A stretch of 64,000 nt of DNA from Chiloscyllium plagiosum (GCF_004010195.1 NC_057743.1:34801877-34865876), one strand, 5' to 3'; positions 3,556 through 62,235 are shown, counted from the first letter of the stretch. Notes: a model not told the origin generated them from the letters alone. Translations and numbers: made by a program.

Positions 3556-3640
3556 TGGAGGCTTCCTGCCTCTATTCCTGATGAAGGGCTTTTGCCCAAA
3601 ACGTCGATTTTCCTGCTCCTCGGATGCTGCCTGACCTGCC
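3556..3640 (+). mobile_element. Penelope-like terminal-repeat fragment (family A) with hammerhead core
   Basis: tattcCTGATGAagggcttttgcccAAAAcgtcgattttcctgctcctcggatgctgcctgacctg; the GAAA is mutated to AAAA. Confidence 0.75.
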
Positions 3641-4094
3641 AAAGAGTGCAGAGTGGGGGCCTTATCTGGAAGATGCCCACATCTGGTACTGGAGCAGCCT
3701 CTCAGTATTCCTCTTCACACATCCAGAGGCATGTGGATGCAGACAAGGCAAACTGCTTACATCTGTTTTCATTGATAGACTTTCTTTTCCTGAAACAATT
3801 CACCAGACGATCGTTTGCGAGCTGGCACTAATGCATGACGAGCATGACATATTGACCCACATCCACAAATGCATATTGGAAGGATTTACAAATTGCTAAT
3901 TAAAACATTGGCCATGTTACAAAGGCACCTTCTTTGGCCATCAAATCCTGGAGAAGGACTTAAACTTGACTCAGAGGAAGGGACACCACTCATTGTTCCA
4001 TAGAACAATCTCCTCCCCCAACCTCAAGTATCCAGCCTGAATCTTATGCTTGAGGCAGGACCCAGGAACCTGTAATTCTTTAATTCAGAGGCAG

Positions 4095-5500
4095 GATAAA
4101 TCTGTTAGAATTCTTTGAGGAGATATCGAGCAAGTTAGACAAAGGAGAGTCAGTGGATGTGATCTATTTGGACTTCCAGAAGACCTCTTTTCAAGGTACC
4201 ACACAGGAGGCTGCTAAAGTCAAATAGGGCTCATGGTGTTTGGGGCAAGGTACTGGCATGGGCAGAGGTTTGTCTGACTGGCAAAAGGCACACAGTAGGG
4301 GTAAAGGTACCTTTTTCAGAATGGCAACCTGTGACGAGTGGAGTTCTGCACGGGTCCATGTTGGGACCATAACTATTCAGGTTATACATTATTGAACTGG
4401 ACAAAGGAACTGAAGACATTGTGGCTAAGTTTGCAGATGGCACAAAGATAGGTGGAGGAACAGGTAGTGTTAAGGAAGTGGAGAGGCTGTAGAAGGACAT
4501 GGACAGGAGAGAGGGCTAGGAGAGAGGGCAAAGAAGTGGCAGTTGGAATACAATGTGGCAAAATGTGAAGTTATGCACTTTAGTAGGAAGAATAGAGGAG
4601 TAGACTATTTTTAAAATGGGGATAGACTTCAGAAATCTGAAGCATAAAGGCACATAGGAGTCCTAGTTCAGAATTTTCGTAAGGTTAACATGCTGGTTCA
4701 GTTGGTGATGAAGGGCTTTTGCCCGAAACGTCGATTTTCCTGCTCCTCGGATGCTGCCTGACCTGCTGTGCTTTTCCAGCACCACTCTAATCTTGATTCT
4801 GGTTTCCAGCATCTACAGTCCTTGTTTTTACCATGCTGGTTCAGTTGGCAGTTAGGAAGGCAAATGCAATGTTAGCATTCATTTCAAGCAGGTTAGAATA
4901 CAAGAGCAGGGATGTACTGCTGAGGCTGTATAAGACTCTAGTCAAACTGCCTTTGGAATATTGTGAGAGTTTTGGGTCCCATATCTAAGGATGGATGTGC
5001 TGGCATTGGAGGGTGTCCGGAAGAGGTTTACAAGAATGATCCTGGGGGATGAAGTGCTTATCATATGAAGAACAGTGAAGGACTCTGGGCCTGTACTCAA
5101 TGGAAGAATGAGGGGGAGGTCTGATTGAAATTTACAGAATACTGAGCGGTCTGCATAGAGCAGGCATGGAGAAGATGTTTCCACTAGGAGGACAGACTCG
5201 GATCTAAGGGCACGGCCTCAGAGTGAAGGGGCAACCCTTTCGAACTGAGATGAGGAAGAATTTCTTCAGCCAGAGGGTGGTGACTCTGTGGAACTCTGCC
5301 TAGAAGGCCATGGAGGTCAAATAGTTGAATGTGTTTAAGACAGAGTTGGTAGGTTCTTGGTTAGTAGAAGGATCAAAGGTTACAGGGAGAAGGCAGGAGA
5401 ATGGGATTAAGAAACATATTAGTCGTGATTGAAAAACAGAGCAGATTTGATGGGCTGATTGGCCTAATTCTACTCCTATACCTTGTCGTCTTATAGGACT
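4095..5500 (+). mobile_element. CR1-clade LINE, RT and C-terminal region of ORF2 plus 3' UTR, degenerate
   Basis: Encodes remnants DVIYLDFQK...KVPHRRLL and KFADGTKIGG...; ends with the typical CR1 3' tail ggcctaattctactcctata. Interrupted by a PLE at 4706-4831. Confidence 0.9.
4706..4831 (+). mobile_element. Short Penelope-like insertion (family A) with 17-bp TSD
   Basis: TSD catgctggttcagttgg at 4689-4705 and 4832-4848. The insert begins tgatgaagggcttttgcccgaaacgtcg and ends tttttac. Confidence 0.85.
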
Positions 5501-6194
5501 GCTGCTAGCAAGATACAGTTGAATAGAAAAGCAGGATAATGGTGGGACTTTTTTTTAAACAGTCCAAATAGAACTCCATAATGTTAGAGGATAGCAGTCA
5601 ATATGCATTCCTCTCTTGAATAATTTCTCAGCTAATGTTGAACAATCAAAAGAGGAGGGCAAACATGTTTTATATTAAAACCAGGAAAGTGAAGGGATGC
5701 TAAAGGACAGAAAAGGCAATTGAATGCAGTTAGGGACGGAGACGTTCTATGTATATATTTTACAACTGGAATACCTACACAATTGGAATATCTCCCATGG
5801 GATATCAACCGTAAGCTCCGACCGTTAGTCTGCTCCATCTTAACTAACTCTAGACATCTCAGCTCAGTATCACACCACATGTTGCATTAAGATAATGAAA
5901 CAAAGCCTCACTTCTGTACAATTATTTTTATGTCCTTGCTTACTGAAATATGAACAATATGCAATAAGTGGTTCCTGTTAAGCTCCTGTCATCCAGCTTC
6001 TAAACCTGAATGACATTCATACAAGCATATTCGACATAAATATGAAGCAAGCTCAATTATGTCTCAAAGGCTCATCCTATGGGCAACAGAGAGCAACAGT
6101 CAGAGCCCCAGGATTATAAATTTCAATGATTCCCACTTTTGCCAGGCACAGCTTTTCCACTGGCATGTGGAAGTATTGACTATATGGCAGCTTC

Positions 6195-6575
6195 TGGGTA
6201 ATGATGCTGGACTAGTAATCCAGAGGTCTAAGCTGACTGACTAATGTTTAATTAATTTGAAGGGCACAGGTTCAATCCCACTACAGACTGTGATGGAATC
6301 CAATTTTAAGACTATTAGTAAGATAGTCTCAACGATTGTGGATTGGTGTGAAAAACCAGCTGGTTCATTAATGTTCTTTAGAAAAGGAAATCTACCGACC
6401 TTACCTAGCGTGGCCTAACATGACTCCAGACCCATACAATGTACTTGACCTTAAAAGCCCTCTGAAATGGTCTAAAAAGCCTTCTCAACTGCAAGACACA
6501 CAGTTCAAGGGCAATTATAGACATGCAACAAAATAAAGCCTTGACATAGATATCCGTATACCATGAAAAAAATTA
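6195..6575 (+). mobile_element. tRNA-derived SINE, second family (ggactagtaatccagag / ggcctacatgtgactccagaccc type)
   Basis: Head ggtaatgatgctggactagtaatccagagg...ggttcaatccc and core ccttacctagcgtggcctaacatgactccagaccc; related copies at 22160, 25715, 29112, 39820, 43265 and 49295. Confidence 0.65.
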
Positions 6576-7002
6576 TCCTTCTCCATGAATCCTCAAACTT
6601 TTATGTACGTTCATTTTAAAAGGCAAGGATATGATAAAAATCTTACTTCCAACAACTTAGTTCCAGTTCTCTTTCTTGAAACAGAAATGTCCTTTAGAAA
6701 GCCTACATATTAGTCTAAGAGTGAAACATGGCATTGAACTATGGCATCTGACCCAGCTGACTGAAATTACCATCTGTTTGTGTTGTAGTCCAACCTCACT
6801 TTGACCTAGATGTTGATGGGGTCCAAGATTCACACCAATGGCAGCATTAGACAATACTTCATTACAAGTTGCTACCAGCTTTCCTCACCTCAGCTTTGTA
6901 AATGAAACACAAATCTTTAAATGACTGTGGAGGTGGGGTCAAAGGCAGACTTAGAACTTCTTAAAGGACTATTTCTCCCGCTAGGCAAATACATCATACT
7001 TA

Positions 7003-9702: not shown

Positions 9703-9777
9703 ATTATTTGTGTCGAAAGGCCACTTCCTAGAAGAATCCATTCCCTAACTGCTCCAACTAGTGATGGTTACATTTTG

Positions 9778-10050
9778 GCAAAAGTGAGGACTGCAGATGC
9801 TGGAGATCAGAGTCTATATTAGAGTGGTGCTGGAAAAGCACAGCAGGTCAGGCGGCATCCGAGGAGCAGGAAAATTGACGTTTCAGGCAAAAGCCCTTCA
9901 TCAGGAATAGAGTCAGGAAGACTCCAGGGTGGAGGAGAGGTGGGAAGGGAGATTGACAGGTGGGACAGGTCATGAGGACAGTGCTGAGCTGAAAGATTGG
10001 AACTGAGGTAAGGTGGGGGGAGGGGAAATGAGGAAACCAGCAAAGTCCAT
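9778..10050 (-). mobile_element. Penelope-like terminal repeat (family A) with hammerhead core
   Basis: Minus strand reads ctattcCTGATGAagggcttttgcctGAAAcgtc, followed by tcctgctcctcggatgc...cctcactttt. Confidence 0.8.
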
Positions 10051-10195
10051 ATTGTGTTCCTGATCTTTATTGTACCAGTCAATGGGAGCAGACAGGCAGG
10101 TGCCCAAAGCAGCTAGAAGGCCAAATGATATATTGGCCGTCATTGCATGAGAATTTGAGTTCAGAAGTAGTGATGTCTTACTGCAGTTCTATAGG

Positions 10196-10412
10196 TGAAA
10201 ATGTGTTGCTGGAAAAGCGCAGCAGGTCAGGCAGCATCCAAGGAACAGGAGAATCGACGTTTCGGGCATAAGCCCTTCTTCAGGAATCCTGAAGAAGGGC
10301 TTATGCCCGAAACGTCGATTCTCCTGTTCCTTGGATGCTGCCTGACCTGCTGCGCTTTTCCAGCAACACATTTTCAGCTCTGATCTCCAGCATCTGCAGT
10401 CCTCACTTTCTT
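10196..10412. mobile_element. Penelope-like fold-back element: perfect 90-bp inverted repeat with 15-bp TSD
   Basis: Arms 10196-10285 and 10287-10376 are reverse complements around a 1-nt loop. TSD ctgcagttctatagg at 10181-10195 and 10413-10427. Confidence 0.9.
10284..10321 (+). ncRNA. Minimal type I hammerhead ribozyme motif (PLE-associated)
   Basis: GAAUC-CUGAAGA-A-GGGC(UUAU)GCCC-GAAA-CGUC-GAUUC: conserved core, 4-bp stem II, palindromic ACGU stem III, GUC cleavage triplet and 5-bp stem I. Confidence 0.7.
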
Positions 10413-13656: not shown

Positions 13657-14518
13657 ATTACTACCTCAATGGAATCAATTTAGGTAAAGGGGCAGTACAG
13701 AGAGATCTGGGTGTTCTTGTACACCAGTCAATGAAGGTAAGCATGCAGGTACAGCAGGTAGTGAAGAAAGCTAATAGCATGCTGGCCTTCATAACAAGAG
13801 GAATTGAGTATAGAAGCAAAGAAGTGCTTCTGCAGCTGTACAGGGCCCTGGTGAGACCACACCTGGAGTACTGCGTGCAGTTCTGGTCTCCAAATTTGAG
13901 GAAAGACATTCTGGCAATTGAGGGAGTGCAGCATAGGTTCACGAGGTCAATTCCTGGAATGGCGGGATTACCTTACACTGAAAGACTGAAGCGACTGGGC
14001 TTGTATACCCTTGAGTTTAGAAGACTGAGAGGGGATCTGATTGAGACGTATAAGATTATGAAAGGATTGGACACTTTGGCAGCAGGAAACATGTTTCCGC
14101 TGATGGGTGAATGCCGAACCAGAGGACACAGCTTAAAAATACAGGGTAGACCATTTAGGACAGAGATGAGGAGAAACTTCTTCACCCAGAGAGTGGTGGC
14201 TGTGTCGAATGCTCTGCCCCAGAGGGCAGTGGAGGCCCAGTCTCTGGATTCATTTAAGAAAGAGTTGGATAGAGCTCTCAAAGATAGTGGAATCAAGGGT
14301 TATGGAGATAAGGCAGGAACAGGATACTGATTAGGAATGATCAGCCATGATCATGTTGAATGGCGGTGCAGGCTCGAAGGGCTGAATAGATCAGTGGTGC
14401 TGGAAGAGCACAGCAATTCAGGCAGCATCCGACGAGCAGCGAAATCGACATTTCGGGCAAAAGCCCTTCATTTTACCTCGAAGGGCTGAATGGCCTACTC
14501 CTGCACCTATTGTCTATT
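13657..14518 (+). mobile_element. Young CR1 LINE 3' fragment with an uninterrupted ORF2 C-terminus (ORF 13731-14330)
   Basis: 199-aa ORF: KKANSMLAFITRGIEYRSKEVLLQLYRALVRPHLEYCVQFWSP...RRLRGDLIETYKIMKG...FFTQRVV. Confidence 0.95.
14388..14476 (-). mobile_element. Short Penelope-like insertion (family A variant) with 15-bp TSD
   Basis: TSD ctcgaagggctgaat at 14373-14387 and 14477-14491; the insert contains gacatttcgggcaaaagcccttca. Confidence 0.8.
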
Positions 14519-16685: not shown

Positions 16686-16912
16686 TTAGAACTGAAACCA
16701 ACATGCCCATTCTAAAAGATGAGCGAGTTAGCAAACAATCCAGGTCTTTTTCAAGATGTAATTTCAATTACATCACATTGTAAACGTTTGCTATAAATTC
16801 TGTGTCCTACGATCTTATTCCCGACAACCACCTGATGAAGGAGCAGCGCTCGAAAAGCTAGTCCTTCCAAATAATCCTGTTGGACTATGACCTGGTGTAG
16901 TATGATTTTTAA
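16686..16912 (+). mobile_element. Penelope-like terminal repeat (family B) with hammerhead core
   Basis: caccTGATGAaggagcagcgctcGAAAagctagt...ttccaaataatcctgttggactatgacctggtg; same family as 37115-37941. Confidence 0.75.
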
Positions 16913-18279: not shown

Positions 18280-19730
18280 GTGTCAACATGAGAAAGGGCC
18301 AGGGCGAGCCGTATTCAGGAAATGTGAATGCATCAACAAAGGTGTATGATGACAGTTCCCAGTTCATTTCTATTCAATCTCCTACTGCACAAGATAGTTC
18401 GAGCACACTCAAGGGTAAGGTTCAGAGGCATTTTTTGAACTTGCTTTGGAGTGATAACCTGCCTAAAAGTATATATGACAGGATTCGCCCTTACAGCCCG
18501 CTGTATCCCTGTAGAAATGGGCTGCCCATGACATGTTGAAGTGATGGACTGTAACACCTTATTTTATTTATTCTACACAGCCATAAATTGGTCTAATAGT
18601 TCCGCAGGCTACTTTTAAACCATGTTTCCACAGATATTGTGAAGGATTCCTTCGTTTTCGCAAAGATCATACAAAGCTACAGGGAGAGCAACACTGTGCT
18701 CCCTTGCCTTTTCAGCTGAGCCAACCTATTCACAAGTGTATCTGGTCAGGAAGCCATTGACATTTGCTGTAGGTCACTATATCTTGGACAGTCTTGATGT
18801 GTTAATGGTGCCTGAAACCATTTTCATAGAACCAATGAAGTTTAGTAACTCCAGCGATTGAGTTCAGTTTCAATAACCCACTTGTATAACCAAAAGAATA
18901 ACGTTGCCGTTGGTTCACCTCTGAACCCAGCTCTTGCTAACATCTCCATTGGTTGCCATGAGAAATGCGTCTTCAACAGAATGACCACAAACCTCCTCAC
19001 CTGGCATAACTGCAGTAAGGGGTAGATGACCTGTTTGTGTAACTTGAACCTGTTGGATTGTTCAGAATTTGTTTGCTCAGCTCTTTAAAATCCATCCTGT
19101 ATAAATTTAACACTGTCATGGAATAATTAAGTGGGCTTCTTTCCCTCCACGTTGAGAAACTTGTCAGCAGGTTCTCTACAGTTATCTCTCACCAGCCTGC
19201 ACTGACTGACTAATATGGGCGTTTACATTCCTATAATCACATGCATAATGAAATCAACCTGATTAGAAAGCTCATGAATAGATCTCTAGTCAATGGCTCA
19301 CCATGTAAGCTTAATATTGAGATTGTGTTAAAAACTACACCCTCTGGCCCTTATCAAACCATCACTTGCTGTCTATCATGCAGACTCATGAAGAGCCTAT
19401 GGTTGCAATGTTTGACCCTGAAGGTGACCAAGTCTACACCAATTATCCTGGATGGGGAAGGTGTCTTGAATGTTTGAGAAACAGGTGAAGTTGCCTGTCT
19501 CATGCTGCTACTTTGTAGCAACCACACCAGTGGGTACAGGATGTTGCCACCAAGCCAGTAAGACAAATGAATTCGCTGGTAAATGAGTTTCCATGGCCGT
19601 GTGATGCCAGGCATGGAAGACATATGTCTCAACAACTGGTGGACTATATCAAACAACACATCTATCTCTCTGATTGTCTGCAGAGGGCACTTTGCCAACC
19701 ACACCTGCAAAATTCAGAACACAGTGGGTA
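18280..19730 (+). mobile_element. Old, heavily degenerate Penelope-like RT/GIY-YIG coding remnant
   Basis: Frame-broken motifs resembling DKGxG (18290), DRIRP...GLP (18480), IVKDSF (18637), VAxGSPLxPALANI (18903), VDD (19022) and the GIY-YIG-like EFxxxCDAR (19585). Confidence 0.65.
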
Positions 19731-19734
19731 ACCA

Positions 19735-20477: not shown

Positions 20478-21090
20478 GATCCACTGCAGTACTGAGGGAA
20501 TGATGCATTGCTGGTTGGGTCATCATTCAGGTGAGATATTTCAGACCTTCTCAACAGGATGTAAAAAACATCCCATGACATTATTTAAAAGAAGTGGGCA
20601 ATCAGCCTGGTATTCCTCAACCATCAGGAAGCAAACAGCTTAATGGATGTAAGTTTGCTTACTCAGCTGAAAAGTTTGGTTTCAGATGTTTCATCACCAT
20701 ACTAGATAACATCACAAATGAGCCTCCAGTGAAGCACTGGTAGCATGTCTCACTTTTTATTTATGTGTTTAAGTTTCTTTGGGTTGGTGATGTCATTTCC
20801 TGTTCTTTTTCTCAGGGGCGGTAAATGGGATCCAGTTCTGGTTTGTTGATCGAGTTCCGGTTGGAATGCCATGCTTCTCAGGTTTCTCGTGCGGGTCTCT
20901 GTTTGACTTGTCGTGGGATGGATGTGTTGCTTAATCTGATCATGATCATATTGCTGGGAGTGTACTGTGTGTAAGCTGGCTGCTATGTTCCTACGTTACA
21001 CAAGTGGTACCCCACTCCAAAAATAACTTCACTGGCTGCAATTGACTTTAGGAACAAATGTGAAGGACACTACAGAAATGTAGTTCATGC
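20478..21090 (+). mobile_element. Deu-domain SINE, split by a Penelope-like insertion
   Basis: gcagtactgagggaatgatgcattg...ggatgtaaaaaacatcccatgac, resuming after the insertion as tggctgctatgttcctacgttaca...cttcactggctg. Confidence 0.65.
20645..20928 (-). mobile_element. Penelope-like 3' fragment (family D) with 7-bp TSD
   Basis: Homologous to 56296-56630. TSD gcttaat at 20638-20644 and 20929-20935. Confidence 0.8.
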
Positions 21091-22450: not shown

Positions 22451-23047
22451 CTTGGAGGTCGTGTTGCGGCTGTACAGGACATTGGTTAGGCCACTGTTAG
22501 AATATTGCGTACAATTCTGGTCTCCTACCTACTGGAAAGATTTTGTGCAACTTGAAAGGGTTCAGAAAAGATTTACAAGGATGTTGCCAGGGTTGGAGGA
22601 TTTGAGCTAGAGGGAGAGGCTGAACAGGCTGGGGCTGTTTTCCCTGGAGTGTCGGAGGCTGAGGGGTGATGTTATAGAGATTTACAAAATTATGAGGGGC
22701 ATGGATAGGATAAATAGGCAAAGTCATTTCCCTGGGGTCAGGGAGTCCAGAACTGAAGGGCATTGGGTTAGGGTGAGAGGGGAAAGATATAAAAGAGACC
22801 TAAGGGGCAATTTTTTCACACAGAGAATGGTACGTGTATGGAATGAGCTGCCAGAGGAAGTGGTGGAGGCTGGTACAATTGCAACATTTAAGAGGCATTT
22901 GGATGGGTATATGAATAGGAAGGGTTTGGAGGGATATGGGCCGGGTGCTGGCAGGTGGGACTAGATTGGGTTGGGATGTCTGGTCGGCATGGACGGGTTG
23001 GACCGAAGGGTCTGTTTCCATGCTGTGCATCTCTAGGACTCTATGAG
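22448..23047 (+). mobile_element. CR1/HER1 LINE 3' fragment
   Basis: ORF 22692-22964 RGERYKRDLRGNFFTQRMVRVWNELPEEVVEAG. Confidence 0.92.
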
Positions 23048-23112
23048 TGCTTCGAGATGTTTAATTACATCAAATGTATGACAGGAATGTTTTTATTTGC
23101 ATATTTATTTAG

Positions 23113-23346
23113 TGTAGTGAAAGGAACCAAGGCCAGGTTGGTCTCATTGAGCTTGAGATCCCTGATTAGGGTTGTTAACCTGGGCTAATCAGGGAGCCCT
23201 GGTTGACAGACATAAGCAGGAGTTTCAGAGAGTCTCACTACACTGGCCACAGCCTGTGAGCTGGCTGGTCAGGGTCGGTGTACTGTGCACATGGTAAATA
23301 AAGGGAGATGTGGTGATTGAATACTGGCCTGCAAAGAGTTATTTCA
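23113..23346 (+). mobile_element. Short solo LTR (234 bp)
   Basis: TG...CA termini, AATAAA at ~23297, 5-bp TSD tttag/cttag, and an internal inverted repeat tccctgattag...ctaatcaggga. Confidence 0.65.
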
Positions 23347-23374
23347 CTTAGGATCAATATTGTGATCATGCATT

Positions 23375-23860
23375 TAGAGTCATAAATGTACAGCATGGAA
23401 ACAGACCCTTCGGTCCAACCCGTCGATGCCAACCAGATATCCCAACCCAATCTAGTCCCACTTGCCAGGACCCGGCCCATTTCCCTCCAAACCCTTCCTA
23501 TTCATATACCCATTCAAATGCCTTTTAAATGTTGCAATTGTACCAGCCTCCACCACATCCTCTGGCAGCTCATTCCGTACACGTACCACCCTCTGCATGA
23601 AAATGTTGCCCTTAGGGCTCTTTTATATCTTTCCCCTCTCACCTTAAACCTATGCCCTCTCGTTCTGGACTCCCCCACCCCAGAGAAAAGACTTTGCCTG
23701 TTTATCCTATCCATGTCCCGCATCATTTTGTAAACCTCTATAAGGTCACCCCTCAGCCTGTTCAGCCTCTCCCTGTAGCTCAAATCCTCCAACCCTGGCA
23801 ACATGCTTGTAAATCTTTTCTGAACCCTTTCAAGTTTCACAACATCTTCTCTAAAAGGGA
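23375..23860 (-). mobile_element. CR1/HER1 LINE 3' fragment
   Basis: ORF 23514-23840 LERVQKRFTSMLPGLEDLSYRERLNRLRGDLIEVYK. Confidence 0.92.
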
Positions 23861-26764: not shown

Positions 26765-26935
26765 TTTTGATCTACCCATCCCACTCAGCACGCCCCCACC
26801 TCCCATTCCTGATGAACAGCTTACACCTGAACCATCGATTCTCCTGCCCCTCGGATGCTGCCTGACCTGCTGTGCTTTTCCAGTGCCACACTTTTCGACT
26901 CTGATCTCCAGCACCTGCAGTCCTCACTTTCTTCT
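26765..26935 (+). mobile_element. Penelope-like terminal repeat (family A), degenerate hammerhead
   Basis: cccattcctgatgaacagc...cgattctcctgcccctcggatgctgcctgacc...cctcactttct. Confidence 0.7.
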
Positions 26936-27052
26936 CCAACTACCCATCCACACAAACGTCCTCCTCAATGAGGTCATTTCAATTGGGGGGGGGGGGAGGA
27001 AGATAATTGCACGTCTGCAGATTTCCTATTGCTTGGCAATGTTTCTCAGCCA

Positions 27053-27245
27053 GGCGAAAGTGAGCACTGCAGATACTGGAGATTAGATCGAGAGAGTGGT
27101 GCTGGAAAAGCGCAGCAGGTCAGGCAGCATCCAAGGAGCAGGAGAATCAACGTTTCGGGCAAATTAAGGGCTTTTGTCCAAAACATTGACTCTCCTGTTC
27201 CTCAGATGCTACCTGACCTGCTGTGCTTTTCTAGTACTCTCAACG
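27053..27245. mobile_element. Penelope-like fold-back insertion with 14-bp TSD
   Basis: Inverted arms around ~27160. TSD atgtttctcagcca (27039-27052) and atatttctcagcca (27246-27259). Confidence 0.8.
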
Positions 27246-28737
27246 ATATTTCTCAGCCACCTCTTTTCCCCTCTTGTTTTTACTCAGGTGAGCTTGAACA
27301 CCTTCTCCCCTTCAGAGAAGCACAAATACCTGCAGTCTGCATGCAGTGAGAAATGACAATTTAACACAAATCAACTCGTCAACTCTATCAGACTGGGGAG
27401 CCTCAATTCACACAGACTTTATTGCATTTGGGAAAATGTCAGTCAAACACAGTCTCCACAGGAGCCAGGCTTTGAGATATCCTGTGCACCATTAGTCAGG
27501 GTGTACTGGGCCTCATTAATGCCACTATTAATGTAATGCTGAAAAGATGAATGTCTTTGCAGATCAACTTTCTAGAGAAGGTGTCGTGTGGTGAGGTGGA
27601 AAAGATATCCAGTGGTTGTTCTTCTAAAATTTGAAAAAAAGACCATGAAATTCTCCTGAACTGGCTCTGATTGGGTCAGCCAGCTAAGCAGTACAAGTCA
27701 CCTCAGTGCGCTCTCAATGTGGGGTACTGCTTTGCGGTGAAAATAAATTGCCAGTGTTTTATTATCACAGCTTGCTGTCAGATCAACCCCTTTAATTAGT
27801 CAGCTGCTGTTCCAAAAATCAGAATCCTCCCGATGAGCACCCCTTCCTCTCCCGGAGACGTTAGTGCAACTTGCCAAATGTTCCTGCACCCACGACCCTT
27901 TCTACTGGTCGCTCCTAACCCCAGTACGGGAGGGCTGCTGCTTTTAAGAGACCCAATCCCTCTCTTCCCTGACTTCAATCCAAGTACTGTACAAACCTCG
28001 CAGGCCAGGTCACTGCAAATTAATCAGGAGCGATTTCTTTTTTCCTTCTCTTTCGCATCCTTAGCCCAGGGTCACTGAGTCTAATTGCATCTCCCCCTCC
28101 CGCCATCCTGTCTGATTTCAGCTAATTGCCTGCAGATTGGATATCAAAACCAGAGATTTTCTGTATGATTCAGAAGCAAATCACACGGCGCCCTTATCCA
28201 CCACCTCCCCTCCGACTCCACAGGAATACAGACACCTCCTGATCTCGCTCTGCCTGCGTTTTAGGTCCATTTGTTATCATCACTGATGTCAAGATCATCA
28301 CTGTCAACCAGGTTCAGTTTAAACTGTGGCCGGACTGGTTGTCAACATGCCGGCACTGGTGGGAAAGATGGAGAGGGAAGGTAGAAGGGGAGACATTGAT
28401 TTGTTCCAGTCTGAGGGCAGGGTTAGAGGTAGCTGGATGTACTGAAGTGTCACCTTGCTCTCCAGCACTGATTATAAGACATCCAATTGAAAGAGCATTA
28501 AAAAGCACCCCTCCACATTGGAAGTGCACATAATTGCCCCACTCCCTCTGGGTTGTTGTGGAACGTGATGTTCCAAAGGGGTTAATGTTCATGTTATATT
28601 GACTCCTCCCATTCCCAATGTGTTACACATCATCTGTGAGTGGAGACAAGGAATTCTAATGTGCCTGTCAGAGGGAGCTGGTGTAGCAATACCTGCTCTC
28701 TAATGTCTGTAATGATGCCTGACCAAACGTGGTTGCA

Positions 28738-30225: not shown

Positions 30226-30499
30226 TCGGCAAAAGTGAGGACTGGAGATCAGAGTCAAGATTAAAGTGGTGCTGGCAAAGCACAGCAGGTCAGGCAGCAT
30301 CCGAGGAGCAGGAGAATCAACGTTTCGGGAAAAAGCCCTTCATCAGGAATGAGGCTAGGAGCCTCGGGAGTGGAGAGATAAATGGGAGGGGGTGGGGCTG
30401 GGGGGGAAGGTAGCTGAGAGTGCGATAGGTGGATGGAGGTGGGGTAAAGGTGATAGGTTGAAGGAGAGGGTGGAGCAGATCAGTGGGAAGGAAGATTGA
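30226..30499 (-). mobile_element. Penelope-like terminal repeat (family A) with 9-bp TSD
   Basis: Minus strand attcCTGATGAagggctttttcccGAAAcgttg. TSD cataacaac at 30217-30225 and 30500-30508. Confidence 0.8.
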
Positions 30500-30537: not shown

Positions 30538-30815
30538 ACAAAAACAAAAATTGCTGAAAAACGGTCAGCAGGTCTGGCAGCATCAGTGGGGTTCTAAGGA
30601 ACGGTCACTGGATCCAAAAATTAACTCTAATGTCTCTCCACAGAGGCTGCCAGACCTGCTGAGCTTTTCCAGCAATGTGGGATTCTGAGGAATGGTCACT
30701 GGACCCGAAATGTTAACTCCGATTTCTCTTCACAGGTGCTGCCAGACCTGCTGAGCTTTTCCAGCAATTTCTGTTTTTGTTTCTGATTTCCAGCGTCCGC
30801 AGTTCTTTTGGTTTC
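30538..30815 (+). mobile_element. Penelope-like family C: tandem terminal repeats plus an inverted 5' segment
   Basis: Two tandem copies of ttct(g/a)aggaa-ggtcactgga(c/t)ccgaaa-gttaactc...gccagacctgctgagc; hammerhead-like CTGAGGA...GAAA at 30685-30710. Confidence 0.7.
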
Positions 30816-37100: not shown

Positions 37101-37114
37101 CCTCTAACTGGAAG

Positions 37115-37941
37115 TTATGATGTGGAGTACCATTGTTAGACTGGGGTAGACAAAGTTAAAAATCACACAACACCAGGTTATAGTCCAACAGGTTTATTTG
37201 GAAGCACTAGCTTTCAGAGCGCTGCTCCTTCATCAGATAGCTAGTGGGCCAGGATACATAGGACACAGAATTTATAAGTAAAAGATCAAAGTGTCATACA
37301 ACTAATGCACTGTATTAGACAAACCAAGGTGGCTGTTAAGTCTTTAATCACTTAGAGTGGGGATGCAGGTTCCAACTGATTAATATGTAAATCCCAGAAT
37401 TTCTTTCAAGTCACCGCCCAAGATAACTTAAGGTTTTATCAGTTCTTAAAAAAAGATGACATCTCAGCTCAGATAATGCATTAAAGGTGTGAGGTTAGAC
37501 TCCGATGTATCCCAACCTGGAGTCAGACTGGTTTTATTTCCAAAGTAAGAATTTATAAAATGTCACACTGACTGCTCAGACTCCAGGTGGGATACAGACA
37601 AAGTCAAACCTCACACCTTTAATGCATTATCTGAGCTGAGATATCACCTTCTTTAAGAACTGATAAACCTTAAATTATCTTGGGCAGTGACTTGAAAGAA
37701 ATTCTGGGATTACACATTAATCAATCAAAACCTGCATCCCCATTTTCAGTGATTAAAGACTTAACAGCAGTCTAGGTTTGTCTAATACAGTGCATCAGTT
37801 GTATGACACTTTGATCTTTTACTTATAAATTCTGTATCCTATGTATCCTGGCCCACTAGCTACGAAGGAGCAGTGCTCTGAAAGCTTGTACTTCCAAATA
37901 ATCCTACTGGATTATAAGGCAGTGTTGTGTGATTTTTAACT
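37115..37941. mobile_element. Penelope-like family B fold-back element with ~370-bp inverted arms
   Basis: Arms ~37154-37524 and ~37579-37941 are diverged reverse complements. Minus-strand hammerhead core CTGATGAaggagcagcgctctGAAAgctag at 37236-37207. Confidence 0.85.
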
Positions 37942-38091
37942 GGAGATTAGATTTGTGCACAGCTTTTTGTTTTAGCTAAGTCTTAACCAGTGAAATGAGG
38001 GAGTTGAAGTCAGATATTAAAACATGGTGAGCAGTTTGCTATTGTGCCGAAATCTGGCCTCAGGTCAGCAATGCAGTGCACTGCCCCTTAC

Positions 38092-38253
38092 CTCCATGAG
38101 TTGGGACTCCCATACTGTTGGCGAGTTGATACAGACGTTGCTGTTGCTCTTCATACGTCCCATGCTCATTCAACGCGGACATCATTCGCCTGTAGTGTTC
38201 TTCAGGTGTCATCTGCATAATCTGATCCTCAATCAAGGGAGTGTGACACTTTT
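38092..38253 (-). CDS. SAMD11: Internal coding exon of SAMD11 (sterile alpha motif domain-containing 11), phase 1-1, 162 nt
   Basis: Translation (E)KCHTPLIEDQIMQMTPEEHYRRMMSALNEHGTYEEQQQRLYQLANSMGVPTHG resembles the recalled human SAMD11 segment MAPEDHYRRLVSALSEASTFEDPQRLYHLGLPSHG. Minus-strand acceptor ttttgttttcctcttcatcaag| and donor CATGGAG|gtaagg; length is divisible by 3. Confidence 0.88.
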
Positions 38254-38339
38254 CTTGATGAAGAGGAAAACAAAAAGACAGAATATTTTGAGGATTTTTG
38301 CAAAAACATGCCTGAATTGGATAAATACAACATAGGACT

Positions 38340-39085: not shown

Positions 39086-41416
39086 GGGTGTTGGTGGCAA
39101 GGGGAGATGAGGAGAAATTCTTTCTGCAGTGTGTCATGATGTTTGAAATCCGAATGCGCGAGAAAGCTGGGGAAAGCAGATTTCAAGTTTCAGAAAGGAA
39201 CTGGACACGCACTTGGATTTGCCAGTTTCTGAGGAAAGAGCAGCAAATGAGGGAATGCATTTTACAGCTCCCCTGGAGAGCTGGCATTGACATGACCAGT
39301 CGAATGGCTACCTTTGCTGTTGTTAAATTTTTTGATTCTACAATTTTGAGCATTGAGACATCACCTCTTGGCGAACCTAAGCCTCGAATCATGATGGGAG
39401 CCAAAGAAACTATGACTTTTTTCACACTGTTCTGTCAGGGTTAGCTCAGGTTAATAGCTGATGCATCTATGACTATTTCCACATGGAGTTCCTGCACTTT
39501 ACATTCACACTCTTACTGTACAAGTGACCTGGGCAGTGTATTCCACAGCAGAGAAATGTGGGCCAGATCAGTGCAACAGTGATGACAACACTAAACTGGA
39601 GGTAGAAAATCCATGGGGTTGATCATCTCAGTTTAGCACAGGATTTCACAGACCTAGACAAAATGATTGTGTGTGAAGTTTTAATAAAACCATTAACGCA
39701 TTTAACCCTCCATCGAGAAATCAAGGATTTCTGTTGCTCACGTGGATTGTTAATGTCAATATTTATCGGCCATCCCTAGTTCCTCTTTTCAGGGAGAGAT
39801 AATGGTGCACATACCTTTCTTTCATCTACAGGAATGAGGGTATGGCTGGCAGGACCAGGATTTATTACCCACAGGCAATTAAGAGCCAAGCTCATTGCTG
39901 TGGGTCTGCAGTTACATGTAGTCCCTAAAGGACATTAGTGACCAGATGAGTTTTTCCCCGATAATTAATTCACAGTCATTATTAGACTCTTAAATCCAGA
40001 GTTTGTTTATTCAATTCAGATTCCATTATCTGCTATTGAAGGATTTGAACCCAAGTCCATAGAACATTCTCAGGGTGTTTGGATTAGGAGTCCAGTCATA
40101 ATACCACGAGGCCATCATATCGCCTTGAATCGCTACATAATCCCACACCCTGGGCTCCTTCATGTCTCACTTGGTTAAACACTGCAGGGTCAGTTATTTT
40201 CTAAATCCCTCTGGATTTCAGCCTTATCTCCATGTTTAGGAGGATCCAAGTGGTCTGGATGAATGTTGATCGCATTGTTCCCGATTGTCAGAATGAATTG
40301 AGAGTCAGTCTAATACTGCACCCACTAACGCAACCAGCAAATCTGAGCAGCACTGCGGACACTCTCACTGTCCCTCACAAAGCCTGCAACACGCTTGGGT
40401 CCAGTCGAGCCAATCATTACCCAGCCAGCTCCATCCTCATCATCTGACCTCCTGCTCTTAAGGTGGTGACGTTGCTGGGATAGAGAATCACGGAGGGTGT
40501 CAGCATGAAACAACTGCGCGAGAGCACGCTGGTAGCTATTCAGTCAAGAAGGCACCAGAGACTGCCCAATCCAATTTGCACTCAGCTGTGGGAGGAAGAT
40601 GGGGGAATGGGAGCAAGGGGCTAAGGTGGAAGCATCTCTTATGAACAAAAGCAGCAGGACCCTGACTGATAGCTTCCTCCTTCCTAGCTCAGGTATTGCC
40701 AGCATCAATTGGTGATGTTGGCTGAGATCAGCTAACTTGAGGATGCACAGAAATCAAATCGCAGCACTGACTTTATTCTGTGAATGAGGAGAGTCCAATG
40801 GAGGACAGAGGTTTAATGCCTCACTGAAGAAAAACAACTCTGTCAGCTCAACAGAATTTTCTTTGTCCCAGGCCAGTGGTGACGTCAGTTTTTAAGACTT
40901 TAACTCCTTCTGCATTGGCAATCAACATTTGACTTTTAATTAGCAGCGTGACAAGATCTGAAACCTTGCCTCTCAGTGGAGCAACACTGCCTCCGTGCTC
41001 TAAGGTAGACAACAGACATTTTATGGGAAACGTAGACTTGAAACCTGTGCAGCTGAATGTCGCAGTCAGAATAATTAAATAAAAGAGATCTAGGACCTTG
41101 TGTTATTCACAGGAACACTCGTTATCTATACTCCAATTATTCAGCGGCCCAATTAGCTGTTATAAGTTTGCACAAGGCAGCATCTCTTTACAGTGTCCAT
41201 TTCATCGAGTGACAAACCCAAAATCCATCCTTCTTAATATCAGAACAAGCTTCGATCTTTCGTGGTGTATGTCTAAGGGCTTAAAGTGGTTTCTTGTGAT
41301 TTGGGATCTCTGGTTAGGAATGCAGCAATACTCTCAAGCAATTAGTCACCTCCTTGTAAATCCGAACTGATCTCAACTCATGAAGGAACTTTTATACTCT
41401 TCACCTTCCATTCCAC

Positions 41417-41972
41417 AGAGATAGCTGAATTGGAGACAGCTGGATCAGAGATAGTGAGATTGGAGGTGGTGGGATTGGAGATAGCTGGATCGGAGGCAGT
41501 GGGATTGGAGGTAGTGGGATTGGAGGTAATGGGATTGGAGGTAACGGGATCAGAGGTAACGGGATTGAAGGTAATGGGATTGAAGGTAATGGGATCAGAG
41601 ATAGCAGGATTGGAGGTAGTGGGATTTGATGAAGTAGGATTTGAGATAGCTGGATCGGAGGTAACGGGATTGAAGGTAGCGGGATCGGAGGTAGTGGGAT
41701 TGGAGGTAGTAGGATTGGAGATAGCTGGATCAGAGATAGCAGGATTGGAGGTAGTGGGATTTGATGAAGTAGGATTTGAGATAGCTGGATCGGAGGTAAC
41801 GGGATTGAAGGTAGCGGGATCGGAGGTAGTGGGATTGGAGGCAGCGGGATTGGAGGCAGCGGGATTGGAGGCAGCGGGATTGAAGGCAGCGGGATTGGAG
41901 ATGGCTGGATCAGAGATAGCTGGATTGGAGGTAGTGGGATTGGAGGAAGCAGGATTTGAGGCAGTGGATCAG
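41417..41972. repeat. 15-bp minisatellite (consensus ~GGATTGGAGGTAGCG), ~37 units with a 135-bp higher-order duplication
   Basis: GGAT recurs every 15 bp; the block starting at 41592 is repeated at 41727. Confidence 0.95.
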
Positions 41973-42344
41973 GTCTGCAGTGCACTGGAAACTGTGCCTT
42001 GGGTTGTATCTGAAGGAGGAATTGATTGATGGTTCAATGCCAAATGAATCTTTAGATTTGTCAGTTTTTTCACTAGTTCAGCATTTCCTTTTGAATCATC
42101 AATGAAACAGTGAGGGCAGGTTGAATCACATTCAGGTTCTGGATCAGGGATTTGGAAGGCTATCAATGGGGTGCAGGCTAAAACTAAACTAGAAGTAAAT
42201 CAAACTAGATCCCTGGATGTACAGCCAATGGATTAAATTATAAATCATAAGGGAGCAGTAGTAAATCTCTAAAGGCACCAATGGAGCCAAATGTGGAGTT
42301 TTCCACACAGTTCTAGACAGTATACTACATTAAACAACAAGCCA

Positions 42345-47365: not shown

Positions 47366-47436
47366 TTGCCTCACTTACATAACTAGTTTTTTTTGTTGGT
47401 TTGATTATTTTAACAACAAAAAGATGAACTCATTAG

Positions 47437-53730: not shown

Positions 53731-53734
53731 AGTT

Positions 53735-56295: not shown

Positions 56296-56882
56296 ATGTG
56301 GCTGTAAGTTTGCTCACTGAGCTGGAAGGTTAATTTTCAGATGTTTCGTCACCATACTAGGTAACATCCTTAGTGAGCCTCTGGTGAAGCGCTGGTGTGC
56401 TGTCCCTCTTTCTATTAATGTGTTTCGGGTTCCTTGGGTTGGTGATGTCATTTCCTGCATTGATGTCATTTCCAGTATTGGTGATGCCATTTCCTGTTCT
56501 TTCTCTCCAAGGGTAGTGGATGGGGTCCAAGTCAAAGTGTTTGCTGATAGAGTTCTGGTTGGAATGCCATGCTTCTAGGAATTCTTGTGTGTGTCTCTGT
56601 TTGGCTTGTCCTAGGATGGATGTGTTGTCCCAGTCGAAGTGGTGTCCTTCCTCATCTGTATGTAAGGATAATAGTGAGAGTGGGTCATGTCGTTTTGTGG
56701 CTAGTTGGTGTTCATGTATCCTGGTGGCTAGTTTTCTGCCTGTTTGTCCAATGTAGTGTTTGTTAAAGTCCTTGCAAGGTAGGTTGTAAATGACATTCAT
56801 TTTGCTTGTTGTCTGTTTCGGGTCTTTTAAGTTCACCATCTGCTGTTTAAGTGTGTTGGTGGGCTTGTGGGCTACCATGATG
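56296..56882 (-). mobile_element. Penelope-like element 3' part (family D) encoding a GIY-YIG endonuclease
   Basis: ORF 56357-56878 NVIYNLPCKDFNKHYIGQTGRKLATRIHEH...EFLEAWHS; hammerhead-like ctaaggatgttacc-tagtat-ggtgacGAAAc at 56373-56343. Confidence 0.9.
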
Positions 56883-57999
56883 ACCCCAGTTTGGACATCT
56901 CATGCAGGATGAGTTGCAAGGACAGCTGAGTGGAGGGGAAGGCGAAGGCAAGAGAAGCAGCTTTTCCTCCCCCCCTACCCCTCCACCATCGGGGGAGAGG
57001 TTTAAATGGAACCCATTTCAAATCCTGCCTGCCTAATTTCACATTCTGCTGAAGTCAACCAAAAGTGGACATCTGACTGAAACCCACCCTGTTCCTGATT
57101 CTTACCAAGCACGTCCGATGGAGGAACAGTTTTTTAAAGGTGCGTGCCACAAGACTGAATCATACAGAGTACTCGGAACGTTTGAAGCAACAAACTGCAA
57201 GCCATGAACCAAATGTTGGTTGTTTCAGGAACGTGACTGACTACAAAATCAAATTTGTGCCTTCCATCAGCGATGGCCACCAAACCTAGACCAACAGAAA
57301 CCACACCAAGCAAACAGAAGAGGCAGTGACTCAGACAGAGGTCTGTGGGATGTGTATCTGTCCCCAGTATCTCATTCTCCTCCTGTAACAGCATTGATTC
57401 CAAACTTCAATCACCTATTTAACCCGGAGAAGCATCTCCATCAAGACAAAACTTATGTTTACCGGAAGTCCTGACGTGTCTTCTTCAGCAGTAGTTAGAG
57501 CTAAGGGACTGGGAATCATAACCATTTAAGAAATAGGAGAAAGCAGAACTATCATCTAGACCTGTGTCATAAACCTCTTTTAACCCACTCAATAGAATCC
57601 CATTGACCTTTCTGCTTGAACTCCACTTTCAGACCTCTCCCAATATCTCTCAAGCAGCTCAACTTCCTTACGAGAAACCGTGCTTTTCATCTTCTTACAA
57701 CGCAGTGGGACAATCGCAAATAATGTCAACCTCGTCTCAGTCCCAACTTCATCTGTCCAACTTTGCCAATACCACATTAGTTTGTTTTTTGATGTATCGT
57801 TCCAGCATTATCACCTCCACTACTCTATTACTTTCTCTTTCAAACAAATGTACTAAATTGCACCAAAAAAAACTGAGAACAGCAGAGACCATTATATAAC
57901 CACAGAATCCCTAAATGTAGAAGTAGGCCATTCAGCCCATCGGGTCTACAACAACCATCCGAACAGCATTCATCCCAGGCCCACGCCCCACCTTTTTAT

Positions 58000-58486
58000 T
58001 ATAGACAAAGATATATCATGATAGAGAGATAGACAGACAGGCAGACTGAATAATAGGTCGACAGATAGACCGAGAGACAGATAGTTAGATTGATAATTAG
58101 ATAGACTAATAGACAGATAGATTACAGCGGTGCTGGAAAAGCACAGCAGGTCAGGCATTATCCGAGGAGTAGGAAAATCGACGTTTCGGGCAAAAGCCCT
58201 TCATCAGGAATAAAGGCAGGGTGCCCTCCACTCTGCAGGCCCCCTGCCTCTATTCCTGATGAAGGGCTTTTGCCCAAAACGTCGATTTTCCTGCTCCTCA
58301 GATGCTGCTTGACCTGCTGAGCTTTTCCAGCACCACTCTAATCTAGACTCTGGCTTCCAGCATCTGCAGTCCTTGTTTTTACCTGACAGACAGATAGACA
58401 GATGGGTAGATTAATAAATAGATAGACTGATAGAAAGACAGATAGATATTACGACAGATATATAAGATATAGATATGATTATAGAT
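58000..58486. repeat. (GATA/GACA)n microsatellite interrupted by a PLE fold-back element
   Basis: Degenerate GATA/GACA runs at 58000-58120 and 58385-58486. Confidence 0.8.
58119..58384. mobile_element. Penelope-like family A fold-back element with hammerhead cores on both strands
   Basis: Arms ~58119-58221 and ~58241-58345; intact minus-strand core CTGATGAagggcttttgcccGAAAcgtcg; ends tttttacct. Confidence 0.85.
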
Positions 58487-59074: not shown

Positions 59075-59900
59075 CACAGTTTAAGATTAAGACTGGGATG
59101 AGGAGAGATTCTCTCACCGAAAGGGTCACTGGCCTGTTGCATTCTCTTCCCCAGCAAACAGTGGTGACTGGGTCATCAAATTTATTCAAGATTGAGCGAG
59201 ATAGACTCTTTATAGACAAGATAGCCCAGAGGTTGAAGAAGGGTGGTGGCAGAGGAGGGGTGGGGGTGGATGAAACCTCAACCAGAACCACCATGATCTT
59301 GCCAAATGGCAGAACAGGTCAAATGGACTACCCTGTTCTTAAATGCTATCTTTCTAAGTATCACTGGAGGCAACAACTCTCTGTTCCTGCCCTGTTTTTC
59401 ATGAGATCCCTATATTTAAAGGAGAATATACTTGCAGCGGAGATGACAAAGCAGTCTAGATTCACTGGATCAGTTCCTAGAATGATTACCTCTGTCAACT
59501 GTACCAATATTCTCTGGAGCTTAGAAGAGTGAGAGGTGGTGATCTTTTTAATACACACAAGTTTCTGAAGTGGCTTGACTGACAGACATAAAAAAGCATT
59601 ACCCACTGACTGAGAGCTCAAAATCTCAGGAAGAAGAGCTGATCGTTGAGGACTGAGACGAGGAAATATTTCTTCACTCAGAGGGTTATGAACCTTTAGA
59701 ATTCTCTGCCCCAGAGAGCTGTGGCTGCTCCATCGCTTAATTATACTCAAGGTTGAGATTTCTGGTCTCTTGGGAAATTAAGAGATGTAGGGAATGGGCA
59801 GAAAAGTAGAGTTGAGGCCAATGATCTACCATGGGTCATACTGAATGGTGGAGCAGGCTTCAGTGGCTGAATGGTGTACCACTGTTCCTATTCTTTATGC
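59075..59900 (+). mobile_element. Two old CR1 3' fragments
   Basis: MRRDSLTERVTGLLHSLPQ and gacgaggaaatatttcttcactcagagggttatgaacc. Confidence 0.75.
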
Positions 59901-60782
59901 TCCCTCATTGATCCACTCTGTTTATTAAAAGCTCTCACCATGTTACTGCTCTGAAGCTAGATTCGGTTCCTGGTCCAATTGTTGGCATCAATCAAGCTGC
60001 TCAAAGATTTGACAAAGCTGAAAACGGAACAATTTCAACCAGTCAGATATCCATTTATCAAACCTAAATAAGAGTTCTGGTTCTGTTCAAATGTCTGTTT
60101 CCATCATCATTTGCATTACTGATCACATTGCCTATGATCAAGTTGAACCACAACCAACCTGTCCCTGTGGGACACAGTGATTTCTACATGATCACAAGAT
60201 ATGAAATTTGATGATCCAATATCTGACCAATAGGACAAACCCGGATCCAGCACGTTCAAACACATTCATTTTCAAACAGGTCATGATGACCTACAAAACA
60301 CCACTGCAAGTACAATTGATGGAGGCTACGAATATTTTGCATGCCATGCTATACTGTAGTTTGCTTCAACAATGAAAATCCCAAAATACAGCCGCCACTT
60401 ACAAGCAGATGGAGCTCACATATTTTCTGTGACAAAAAACTGTGATCAATCAATCGATGAGCACAAAAGCATCTCCATGACTCATTACCTCTTTGCTGTT
60501 CTCCAGATACAAGCTCCAGGGTATTGTGTTAAAGTGACACCCAGGTCTGTGTGTCCATGAAAGCCCAAGTTCCACAGCATTTTCCTGCATAGAGTTCCAG
60601 GCAGTTTTCTTACAAGTGGGAGGGGTCAGCATCAGCCCCTCCTGAAGCCTAGCAGTGGGCTGGCCAATTAAACTTCAGCAGTGGACAAGCAGGATAGGAG
60701 GCATTTGCATGGAACGGGAACACAAATTACTTTGAACAAGGTTACCACAATAAAAATGCAGGAGGCAGTAATTGTGCTTATC

Positions 60783-60935
60783 TATAAAGGTAAAGTCACC
60801 ATAGTCCTACTCTTGACAACTGGTGGTGGTTTAACCCTGAGGGTCACCACACCTCAGGTGAGGTTGAGAAGGCAGAAGCTTCATGGTAACCTCAGCCAGT
60901 GTGGGAATTGAATCCATGCTGTTGGCATTGCAAGC
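60783..60935 (-). mobile_element. SINE fragment with a tRNA-like head and an (ACCTTT)-type tail
   Basis: Tail aaaggtaaagtcaccatagtcc and B-box-like ggattcaattccc on the minus strand. Confidence 0.45.
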
Positions 60936-61164
60936 CTGTGGATGGCCATCAACACGGTGAAAAATGTTCTTTGGTCAGACCAAAACTAGTTGGTCTTGCA
61001 GAGCAAGGAATTGACCCTGGCTGAGTTTTGCAAACTGACACATCCCAAGGTCCAGGACTACGTGCTGAGGGATGAACTAAAGCTCAGGACAGCTGTCACC
61101 AAGGCCCAGTGGGGAAAGACCATTGTCTGAGGTCTTTCTGCTGAAGTTAAATGGGGAGTCTACC

Positions 61165-61927
61165 TGGTCAGGTCTACGCCCCCTAACAAGCCACCTTCCC
61201 CTGCCACCGCAGGAATTGCAAAACCTGCACCTACACCTTCCCCCTTACCACCGTGCAAGGTCCCAAAGGGGCCTTCCACATCGATCAAAGTTTCACCCGC
61301 ACTTTCACCCATGTTATTTATTGTATCCACTGCTCCCGATGTAATCTCCTCTACACTGGGGAGACTGGACACCTTCTCACAGAGCACTTCAGAGAACATC
61401 TTCAGGACACCCGCACTAATCAACCCCCCCCCCCCGCCCCATGGCCGAACATTTCAACTCCCCCTCCCACTCTGCCGAGAACATGTAGGTCCTGGGCCTC
61501 CTCCATCACCACCCGACGCCTGGAGGAAGAACGCCTTATCTTCTGCATCAATTTGGACTTCACCAGTTTCCTCATTTCCCGTCTCCCCACCTTACCCCAG
61601 TTCCAACATTCCAGCTCAGCACCGTCCTCATGACTTGTCCTACCTGTCAATCTTCCTTCACACCTATCCACTCCACACTCCCCTCTGACCTATCACCTTT
61701 ACCCCCACCTCCATCCACCTATTGCACTCTCAGCTACCTTCTCCCCAGCCCTACCCCCTCCCATTTATCTTTCCACACCCAAGGCTCCCAGTCTCATTCC
61801 TGATTAAGAGCTCCAGCCCAAAACGTCAATTTTCCTGCTCCTCGGATGCTGCCTGATCTGCTGGGCTTTTCCAGCAACACACTCTCAACTGTGATCTCCA
61901 GTGTCTGCAGACCTTATTGTCTCCTTA
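61165..61927 (+). mobile_element. Penelope-like element 3' part (family A) with a GIY-YIG remnant
   Basis: ORF 61253-61633 HVIYCIHCSRCNLLYTGETG...FREH...RLEEERLIF, followed by the family A terminal repeat. Confidence 0.88.
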
Positions 61928-62235
61928 GACAGGCAGGAGGTTGGAAGAACACACCAGGTCTGGCAGCATCAGCAGCTGGAGAAGTTTGAAGTTTCGGATG
62001 CAACCCTTCTTCAGGATGTTAAATCAGGATCCATTCAGTTATCAGACTCTGCCAATGCCTCAAATATAGGTAAATATATTATTGCACAAGTAAGAAATAC
62101 CTTTGGTTTAACTGTTCTGAGGAAGAGTCTCTAGACCCAAAACATTAACTCTGATTTTTCCACACAGATGCTGTCAGACCTGCTGAGTTTTTCCAGCAAT
62201 TTCTGTTTTTGTTTCTGATTTCCAGCAGTTCTTTC
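61928..62235. mobile_element. Further PLE terminal-repeat fragments: 61928-62016 (minus) and 62115-62235 (plus, family C)
   Basis: Minus strand cCTGAAGAagggttgcatccGAAAct; plus strand ttCTGAGGAagagtctctagacccaaaacattaact. Confidence 0.6.

Follow-up and report, generated by a model that had tools for sequence, protein, structure and literature searches.

Minimal type I hammerhead ribozymes (min-HHRs) have been described by Cervera and de la Pena (2014, PMC4209133) in the pseudo-long terminal repeats (pLTRs) of metazoan Penelope-like elements (PLEs), with occurrences reported in fishes, coelacanth (~4,000) and Xenopus (~9,000). The monomers are inactive and the dimers weak in vitro (PMC4209133), the ribozyme of an Anolis element cleaves only with the element's protein (PMC11167929), and in vivo cutting by minimal PLE hammerheads is stated as open (PMC4209133, PMC8557442, PMC11167929). 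Here we analyze a 64,000-nt stretch of the shark Chiloscyllium plagiosum genome (NC_057743.1:34801877-34865876; hereafter the window), located wholly within SAMD11, in which dispersed repeats carry motifs of this architecture. We hold with high confidence that these motifs are minimal hammerheads at the ends of Penelope-like elements, that the copies in SAMD11 introns are likely inert, and that the ribozyme serves the element's own RNA.

The shark motifs share with described min-HHRs the type I order, both conserved boxes, an extra base before stem II, the G10.1-C11.1 pair, a palindromic 15.1-16.1 segment and a short stem I, together with the presence of many families per genome, mostly as solo copies from truncated elements (PMC4209133). 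They differ in helix length, with a stem II of 4-6 bp and a stem I of 2-3 bp, as against a stem II of 7-8 bp in Schistosoma (PMC4209133), and in abundance, one exact 28-mer alone accounting for 18,175 copies. Sharks are not named in the text consulted from that work or in two of its three supplementary files, and no earlier shark report of PLE min-HHRs was found in the literature searched, with Repbase, Dfam and Lunse et al. outside that search.

Conservation was assessed on eight subfamily majorities derived from 232 aligned copies. The CUGANGA and GAAA boxes are invariant, and the NUH cut site is kept in all eight, position 17 being C, A or U and never G. Stem II comprises 4, 5 or 6 pairs, and compensatory changes preserve its pairing as its sequence varies between families, in agreement with a first-pass annotation of the window made by a model from sequence alone. 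Stem I, on which that annotation was silent, likewise covaries, reading AUUC/GAUU in family A (2 bp, U.U, 1 bp), CAC/GUG in B, GUU/AAC in C, and UCA/UGA and GCA/UGC in D. The palindrome replacing helix III is ACGU in A, C and one D group and AGCU in B; in the older D group the majority is ACAU, a CpG-type change. An extra base (A or U) separates A9 from 10.1 in every majority. The 10.1-11.1 pair is G-C in seven of the eight majorities. Family C, whose CpG has decayed there, shows G.U instead, with G-C in the 49 exact genomic copies of that family. These 49 match a C 36-mer; a B 35-mer has 1,563 exact copies in the 3.56 Gb host genome, and the reversed control of the A 28-mer has none. Roughly extrapolated, our sample implies 0.6-0.8 million copies genome-wide, and intact motifs numbering 0.11-0.15 million.

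Within the window, a strict descriptor (both boxes, a stem II of at least 3 pairs closed by G-C, a 4-base palindrome, NUH and a 2-bp stem I) returned four motifs, compared with a mean of 0.0 and a maximum of 0 in 200 dinucleotide shuffles, and a loose descriptor returned seven, compared with a mean of 0.31 (maximum 4) in 200 such shuffles. SAMD11 lies on the minus strand, so that minus is the sense strand throughout. The four strict motifs (58207-, 10283-, 10289+ and 30346-) are:

58180..58207, minus strand: family A minimal hammerhead, intact, sense; predicted cut 58180/58179; predicted to be buried in a hairpin (39.4 kcal/mol to open)
10256..10283, minus strand: intact family A minimal hammerhead on the sense strand, missing from the earlier list; a hairpin is predicted to bury it (38.2 kcal/mol to open)
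10289..10316, plus strand: family A minimal hammerhead, intact, antisense
30319..30346, minus strand: family A copy, sense, marginal (3-bp stem II, GUU site), outside fold-backs; nearest intact partner 20 kb away

That the motifs are chance look-alikes in repeats might be argued from the Rfam scan of the window, which found no hammerhead family at E up to 5; the minimal motifs fall outside the Rfam hammerhead models, and the Rfam matches over fold-back copies are hairpin matches to microRNA models only. The shuffles and the 28-mer counts (18,175 exact copies versus none for the reversed control) refute this explanation, compensatory changes in three helices also stand against it, and its probability is negligible. 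The first-pass annotation had listed 11 places with the hammerhead architecture, and repeat copies are present at all 11, within 1 base. Most of them do not carry the sequence given for them; 10289+, 58207- and, marginally, 30346- pass the motif test (3/11), the other eight failing it.

The same annotation had attributed the motifs to PLEs, and this identification holds on the invariant core, the compensatory stem changes and the presence of a PLE endonuclease or reverse transcriptase (RT) upstream of all four families. A GIY-YIG frame lies at most 900 bases upstream, on the same strand, in 16 of 143 A copies and 16 of 27 D copies. Among loci fetched from the genome, an endonuclease lies upstream in 1 of 25 B loci (plus one inverted) and in 3 of 25 C loci, with RT upstream in 2. 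The proposed linkage of families A and D to GIY-YIG open reading frames (ORFs) is borne out in the window by A and D copies with an endonuclease upstream:

61187..61633, plus strand: GIY-YIG endonuclease remnant of Neptune type with a CxxxxCxxC linker, lying upstream of the decayed core at 61800; Pfam E 0.018, below the curated cut-off
61800..61827, plus strand: family A core, decayed
56357..56899, minus strand: remnant of a Penelope/Poseidon-type GIY-YIG ORF, its last codons overlapping the family D core; Pfam E 0.002, below the curated cut-off
56340..56373, minus strand: family D copy, sense, with G5A and a broken palindrome
20644..20928, minus strand: second family D remnant, with the endonuclease end and a dead core at 20718

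In the stretch 56340-56380(-), the stop codon of the endonuclease frame falls in loop II of the family D core. A CX2-5CxxC linker precedes the endonuclease in family A (at 61187 and in locus L043) and in family B (L153, L158), and the family C endonuclease is related (33-43%). In family D there is no linker zinc finger between thumb and endonuclease (thumb-to-endonuclease frame of L048), as in Penelope/Poseidon. As judged from these sequence features, families A and B are assigned to the Neptune type (C and E by relation) and D to the Penelope/Poseidon type; Nematis shares Neptune's linker, and the clade call for A and B comes from the linker, not from an RT tree. In L043 and L172 the core is preceded by RT and then endonuclease fragments, and RT fragments also lie upstream in L044 and L186; the Pfam matches (PF00078, E 5.5e-4; PF01541, E 0.002) are below the curated cut-offs. 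A search for longer homologues with the A endonuclease matched one shark protein, and an apparent frame of 3,731 aa next to a D endonuclease proved to be an assembly gap. Element copies support the terminal-repeat location of the motif in PLEs, and at L047:4330-4840(-) two intact family A cores stand in tandem, 406 bases apart, with the element's ORF start between them and a common 14-base flank. The four families had been described as unrelated, which overstates the case: A, C and a fifth variant, E, have a homologous downstream tail, so that the core-spanning window copies form three lineages (A/C/E, B and D).

Evidence bearing on cleavage comes from U6. Hammerhead cleavage gives a 5'-OH end. 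Mature U6 ends in five Us with a 2',3'-cyclic phosphate, and RtcB joins U6 to 5'-OH RNA (PMC6789731). In a survey for which the 30 best of 48 scored U6 loci were fetched, a direct run from U6 into a family A tail was found in two. A genome-wide exact pattern, allowing 0-30 bases between the U6 end and the tail anchor, gave seven matches at six loci with one common joint for family A and one match for family B, with none for the reversed controls. The resulting set is:

L196, L213, L220, L221, L223, L224, L226 and L227, own genome, outside the window: U6-element chimeric loci, seven of family A and one of family B, several of them fold-backs themselves

At all eight loci, 24-105 bases of U6 and exactly five Ts are followed by the first base after the predicted cut, without microhomology. 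The first 13 element bases differ among all eight (eight tail variants), and these are therefore separate events; for seven of the eight, ordinary copies with the same 13 bases are mostly preceded by GAAACGTC or GAAAGCTA, the remaining one lacking an exact counterpart in the sample. The joints resemble the U6/LINE-1 chimeras produced by RtcB (Moldovan et al. 2019, PMC6789731), in which the U6 3' end, with five Ts, is joined to retroelement RNA and retrotransposed, and differ from them in having a Penelope-like element as partner and a joint at one fixed bond, the predicted ribozyme cut. RtcB ligation, or a template jump from a cut 5' end to U6, would yield the same joint, and both need an RNA end at that bond. 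The U6 joints suggest, as indirect evidence, that the A and B ribozymes cleave in the germ line, and we think it rather probable that they constitute a fossil record of such cleavage, with no fewer than eight independent events, across two unrelated families, that joined U6 to the 5'-OH product precisely at the scissile bond. No earlier report of U6-Penelope chimeras was found in the literature searched.

Other U6 copies (L193, L194, L201, L202, L206, L211, L215, L216, L218 and L219) adjoin other repeats directly or nearly so, most of them the 5' end of one SINE-like family, and U6 also occurs in short tandem arrays with similar flanks (L195, L198, L203 and L209), in which two copies lie ~350 bases apart.

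The ends of ordinary copies bear on how the repeats are made. Their 3' ends are bimodal, lying at about +65/+105 bases from the cut site in A, +60/+95 in B, +40/+75 in D and +65/+100 in C. Many copies belong to head-to-head fold-backs (92 of 176 in A, 52 of 74 in B, 13 of 29 in D and 23 of 74 in C), and a long arm is paired with a short one in 84 of 94 fold-back pairs (A 42/47, p 1e-8; B 27/28). Three family A fold-backs lie in the window:

58118..58383: family A head-to-head fold-back insertion, short-tail arm plus long-tail arm (inverted repeats, sequence and fold)
10205..10392: family A fold-back insertion with a 15-base target-site duplication
27085..27250: family A fold-back without intact cores

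These ends and fold-backs fit the known PLE tail, the inverted pLTR, and the two start sites and two-strand priming of the Anolis element, and suggest that copying starts just 3' of the ribozyme. Reverse transcription would start at two sites ~40 bases apart, 40-105 bases 3' of the ribozyme, and would usually halt soon afterwards, making the ribozyme the part most often copied, and each fold-back would be one insertion primed from both target strands. The Anolis Poseidon element PAc (Frangieh et al. 2024, PMC11167929) likewise has two RT start sites that define its tail, and both target strands are cut and extended; the systematic pairing of long and short arms is what the shark counts add. 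Endonuclease-containing (EN+) PLEs share with the shark insertions an inverted 5'-truncated pLTR with head-to-head arms, a 30-40 bp tail on one arm and a target-site duplication (PMC8557442, PMC3846280). Partial tandems, an inverted 5'-truncated copy, a 30-40-base tail and target-site duplications are all found here, the difference being that shark insertions are mostly 100-300-base stubs without an ORF.

Among ordinary copies, 5' junctions at the cut site show no peak (A 0/174, B 0/74, D 0/29, C 2/70). Since no ordinary A copy starts there, the template must be uncleaved or rejoined RNA, a likeness to PAc, for which uncleaved RNA is the main template (PMC11167929). Solo A copies bounded by target-site duplications start within 22 bases of C3 in 12 of 16 cases, with mixed short leaders, several of them G-containing, before ATTC.

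The absence of ordinary A copies starting at the cut site speaks for a rival reading, in which the motif is kept as a binding or folding signal for the element protein, or by promoter overlap, with no in vivo cleavage and with the U6 joints otherwise caused. In Anolis, ribozyme mutants inserted unimpaired in vitro and no RNA-seq ends were seen at the site (PMC11167929), and PLE clades without the ribozyme proliferate (PMC8557442). Against it stand the catalytic positions and the NUH rule, which Neptune- and Poseidon-type lineages alike retain, and the U6 joints, eight of eight of which lie, free of microhomology, on the predicted bond in families A and B, although in family A T-runs do lie a few bases from the joint on both sides. 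We consider this explanation improbable. PAc itself gives no sign of in vivo cleavage (PMC11167929), whereas the shark U6 joints provide one. In the reading we favor, the ribozyme would cleave element RNA at least sometimes, and the resulting 5'-OH end could be joined to U6 before being copied into DNA. Selection would keep the ribozyme working within element RNA, in which the dimer fold would be made possible by tandem copies and probably by the element protein.

The first-pass annotation had further proposed that SAMD11 pre-mRNA could assemble dimeric ribozymes and cut its own introns. Exon matches flank the window on both sides, and the whole window is therefore SAMD11 with minus as sense: tblastn places two coding exons inside it and 12 further exon matches at window positions from +231,900 to -75,666, and a 62-residue frame at 38087-38272(-) has 96% identity to shark SAMD11.

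62553-62461, minus strand: SAMD11 coding exon, ~aa 378-408 of protein P0012 (tblastn 93.5% identity)
38257-38093, minus strand: SAMD11 coding exon, ~aa 408-462 of P0012 (tblastn 96.4%)

A search seeded from five variants found 28 family pieces in the window, 20 of which span the core (9 sense, 11 antisense) and four of which are intact by the motif test. The 'several intact cores' ascribed to the sense strand thus come to three of the nine sense copies: 58207-, the previously unlisted 10283- and the marginal 30346-. The copies not yet described are:

9877..9904, minus strand: family A copy, sense; stem II closes on a G.U pair, stem I is broken, and the final codons of the endonuclease ORF lie before it
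3578..3605, plus strand: family A copy, G12A, antisense
4705..4833, plus strand: family A copy 5'-truncated within the core, with C3G, no stem I and a target-site duplication of ~17 bases
14386..14471, minus strand: family A copy truncated in the core, sense, dead
26805..26936, plus strand: family A copy, decayed
58256..58283, plus strand: family A copy, G12A (CpG-type change), antisense
16832..16860, plus strand: family B copy, GAAA and palindrome broken, antisense
37208..37236, minus strand: family B copy, sense, with a G.U closing pair and no Watson-Crick stem I; inverted pair with 37710-37939(+)
30549..30795: family C cluster, an inverted tail piece with two cores in tandem (30594 and 30685, spaced 91 bases); both cores are antisense and broken, 30685 with a U.C closing mismatch and no palindrome
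62117..62226, plus strand: family C copy, decayed
61988..62014, minus strand: variant E core (tail related to A and C), sense, palindrome and stem I broken; missing from the earlier list

For intron cutting to matter, palindrome pairing in SAMD11 pre-mRNA would have to bring sense copies together often enough, either with one another or in trans with element RNA. In favor of this, three window sense copies pass the motif test, six of the gene's nine intact sense copies escape strong predicted sequestration, and a capacity of these families to cleave in cells is indicated by the U6 joints. Such a dimer would depend on a 4-bp palindrome and 2-bp stems I, and intact sense copies are at least 16 kb from the next, 58207- and 10283- lying in different introns. 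For both of these, the best sense copies, folding predicts full pairing with an antisense arm that is transcribed ahead of them, at the opening costs listed above. Even the true 406-base tandem in L047 is predicted, as a dimer, to lie 16 kcal/mol above its best fold, and one of nine Xenopus dimers cleaved in vitro (10.64898/2026.07.22.740005). A single-cell poly(A) run over L047 (1,184 reads from ~2% of the run) gave no pile-up of ends, to which the library type and an uncertain species match allow no weight on either side.

Strand and decay were examined in 1.04 Mb of oriented genic DNA within SAMD11 and eight spectrin-repeat genes, with gene strand taken from exon matches. Sense and antisense copies are balanced (122:119 core-spanning, 21:22 intact), also after removal of fold-back members (63:58 and 9:9). 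Non-CpG divergence is similar in core and tail in A (5.9% vs 6.3%, p 0.70) and B (8.1% vs 7.1%, p 0.47), so that the first-pass annotation's own refuting condition, a core no better conserved than its flank among genomic copies, holds for both, and the excess of core over flank conservation that would mark a domesticated intronic hammerhead is absent from them. Divergence at CpG sites is ~21%, and 82 of 128 A copies carry a CpG-type change within the motif because G12 and the family A palindrome sit in CpGs. After insertion, A and B cores decay like flanking DNA, and fastest at CpG. With the best sense copies predicted sequestered, intact same-strand partners at least 16 kb apart and no strand bias, the proposal that SAMD11 pre-mRNA cuts its own introns is not supported, and we judge frequent intron cutting to be unlikely, though not as remote as a chance origin of the motifs. 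Judged by sequence and predicted folds, the copies in SAMD11 introns are probably inert remains of insertions, most of them decayed or with predicted sequestration, rather than a device cutting the gene's RNA.

Several observations weigh against our overall interpretation. Introns can tolerate cleavage, and harmless cuts would leave no strand bias; the strand test is blind to them and is weak for intact solo copies (9:9, 95% interval 0.26-0.74). The predicted opening cost is below 8 kcal/mol in 11 of 19 foldable intact sense copies, including the six of nine in SAMD11, and sequestration, as modeled, does not cover all intact sense copies. The cores of C and D are less diverged than their tails (11.9% vs 19.0%, p 0.001; 6.5% vs 12.0%, p 0.013), which may reflect subfamilies left unseparated in these mixed sets. 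Cleaved linear RNA is rarely copied, as the absence of ordinary A copies starting at the cut site attests. One exact pattern each for C and D gave three C matches, none with U6, and no D match. No full-length intact element was seen, the long copies fetched carrying assembly gaps.

Two further groups of hammerheads invite comparison. Animal non-LTR retrozymes have type I hammerheads related to those of PLE pLTRs, and are reported in the one chondrichthyan sampled; they form tandem arrays with a ribozyme per unit, in contrast to the dispersed stubs of the window (10.64898/2026.07.22.740005). Tandem units with a complete hammerhead in each are not found in the window, where the only tandem (30594/30685), of two units, has two broken cores. 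Conserved amniote intronic hammerheads, such as that of RECK, are likewise type I and intronic, and are single conserved loci, as opposed to young or decaying shark repeats without strand bias (PMC6155905). The window motifs are ordinary members of a described class, with little bearing on SAMD11.

Elsewhere in the window, a 15-base minisatellite of ~33 units (41358-42047) has, within the intron, frames of 196-227 codons open on both strands, with low-complexity Pfam matches only. LINE-type 3' fragments at 22464-23759 include a close inverted pair (arms 22805-23030 and 23386-23611, 92% complementary). Between 17750 and 19713 lie several long frames free of stops, with faint RT-like words at 18516 and 19025; neither Pfam nor tblastn supports them.

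With copies so numerous, this genome is well suited to measuring selection on intronic ribozymes and to reading from junctions how insertion proceeds. On in vivo cutting by minimal PLE hammerheads, the evidence from the U6 joints is indirect; if they do record it, cut ends would be substrates for a cellular RNA ligase, the step required by the circular-RNA model of Penelope replication.

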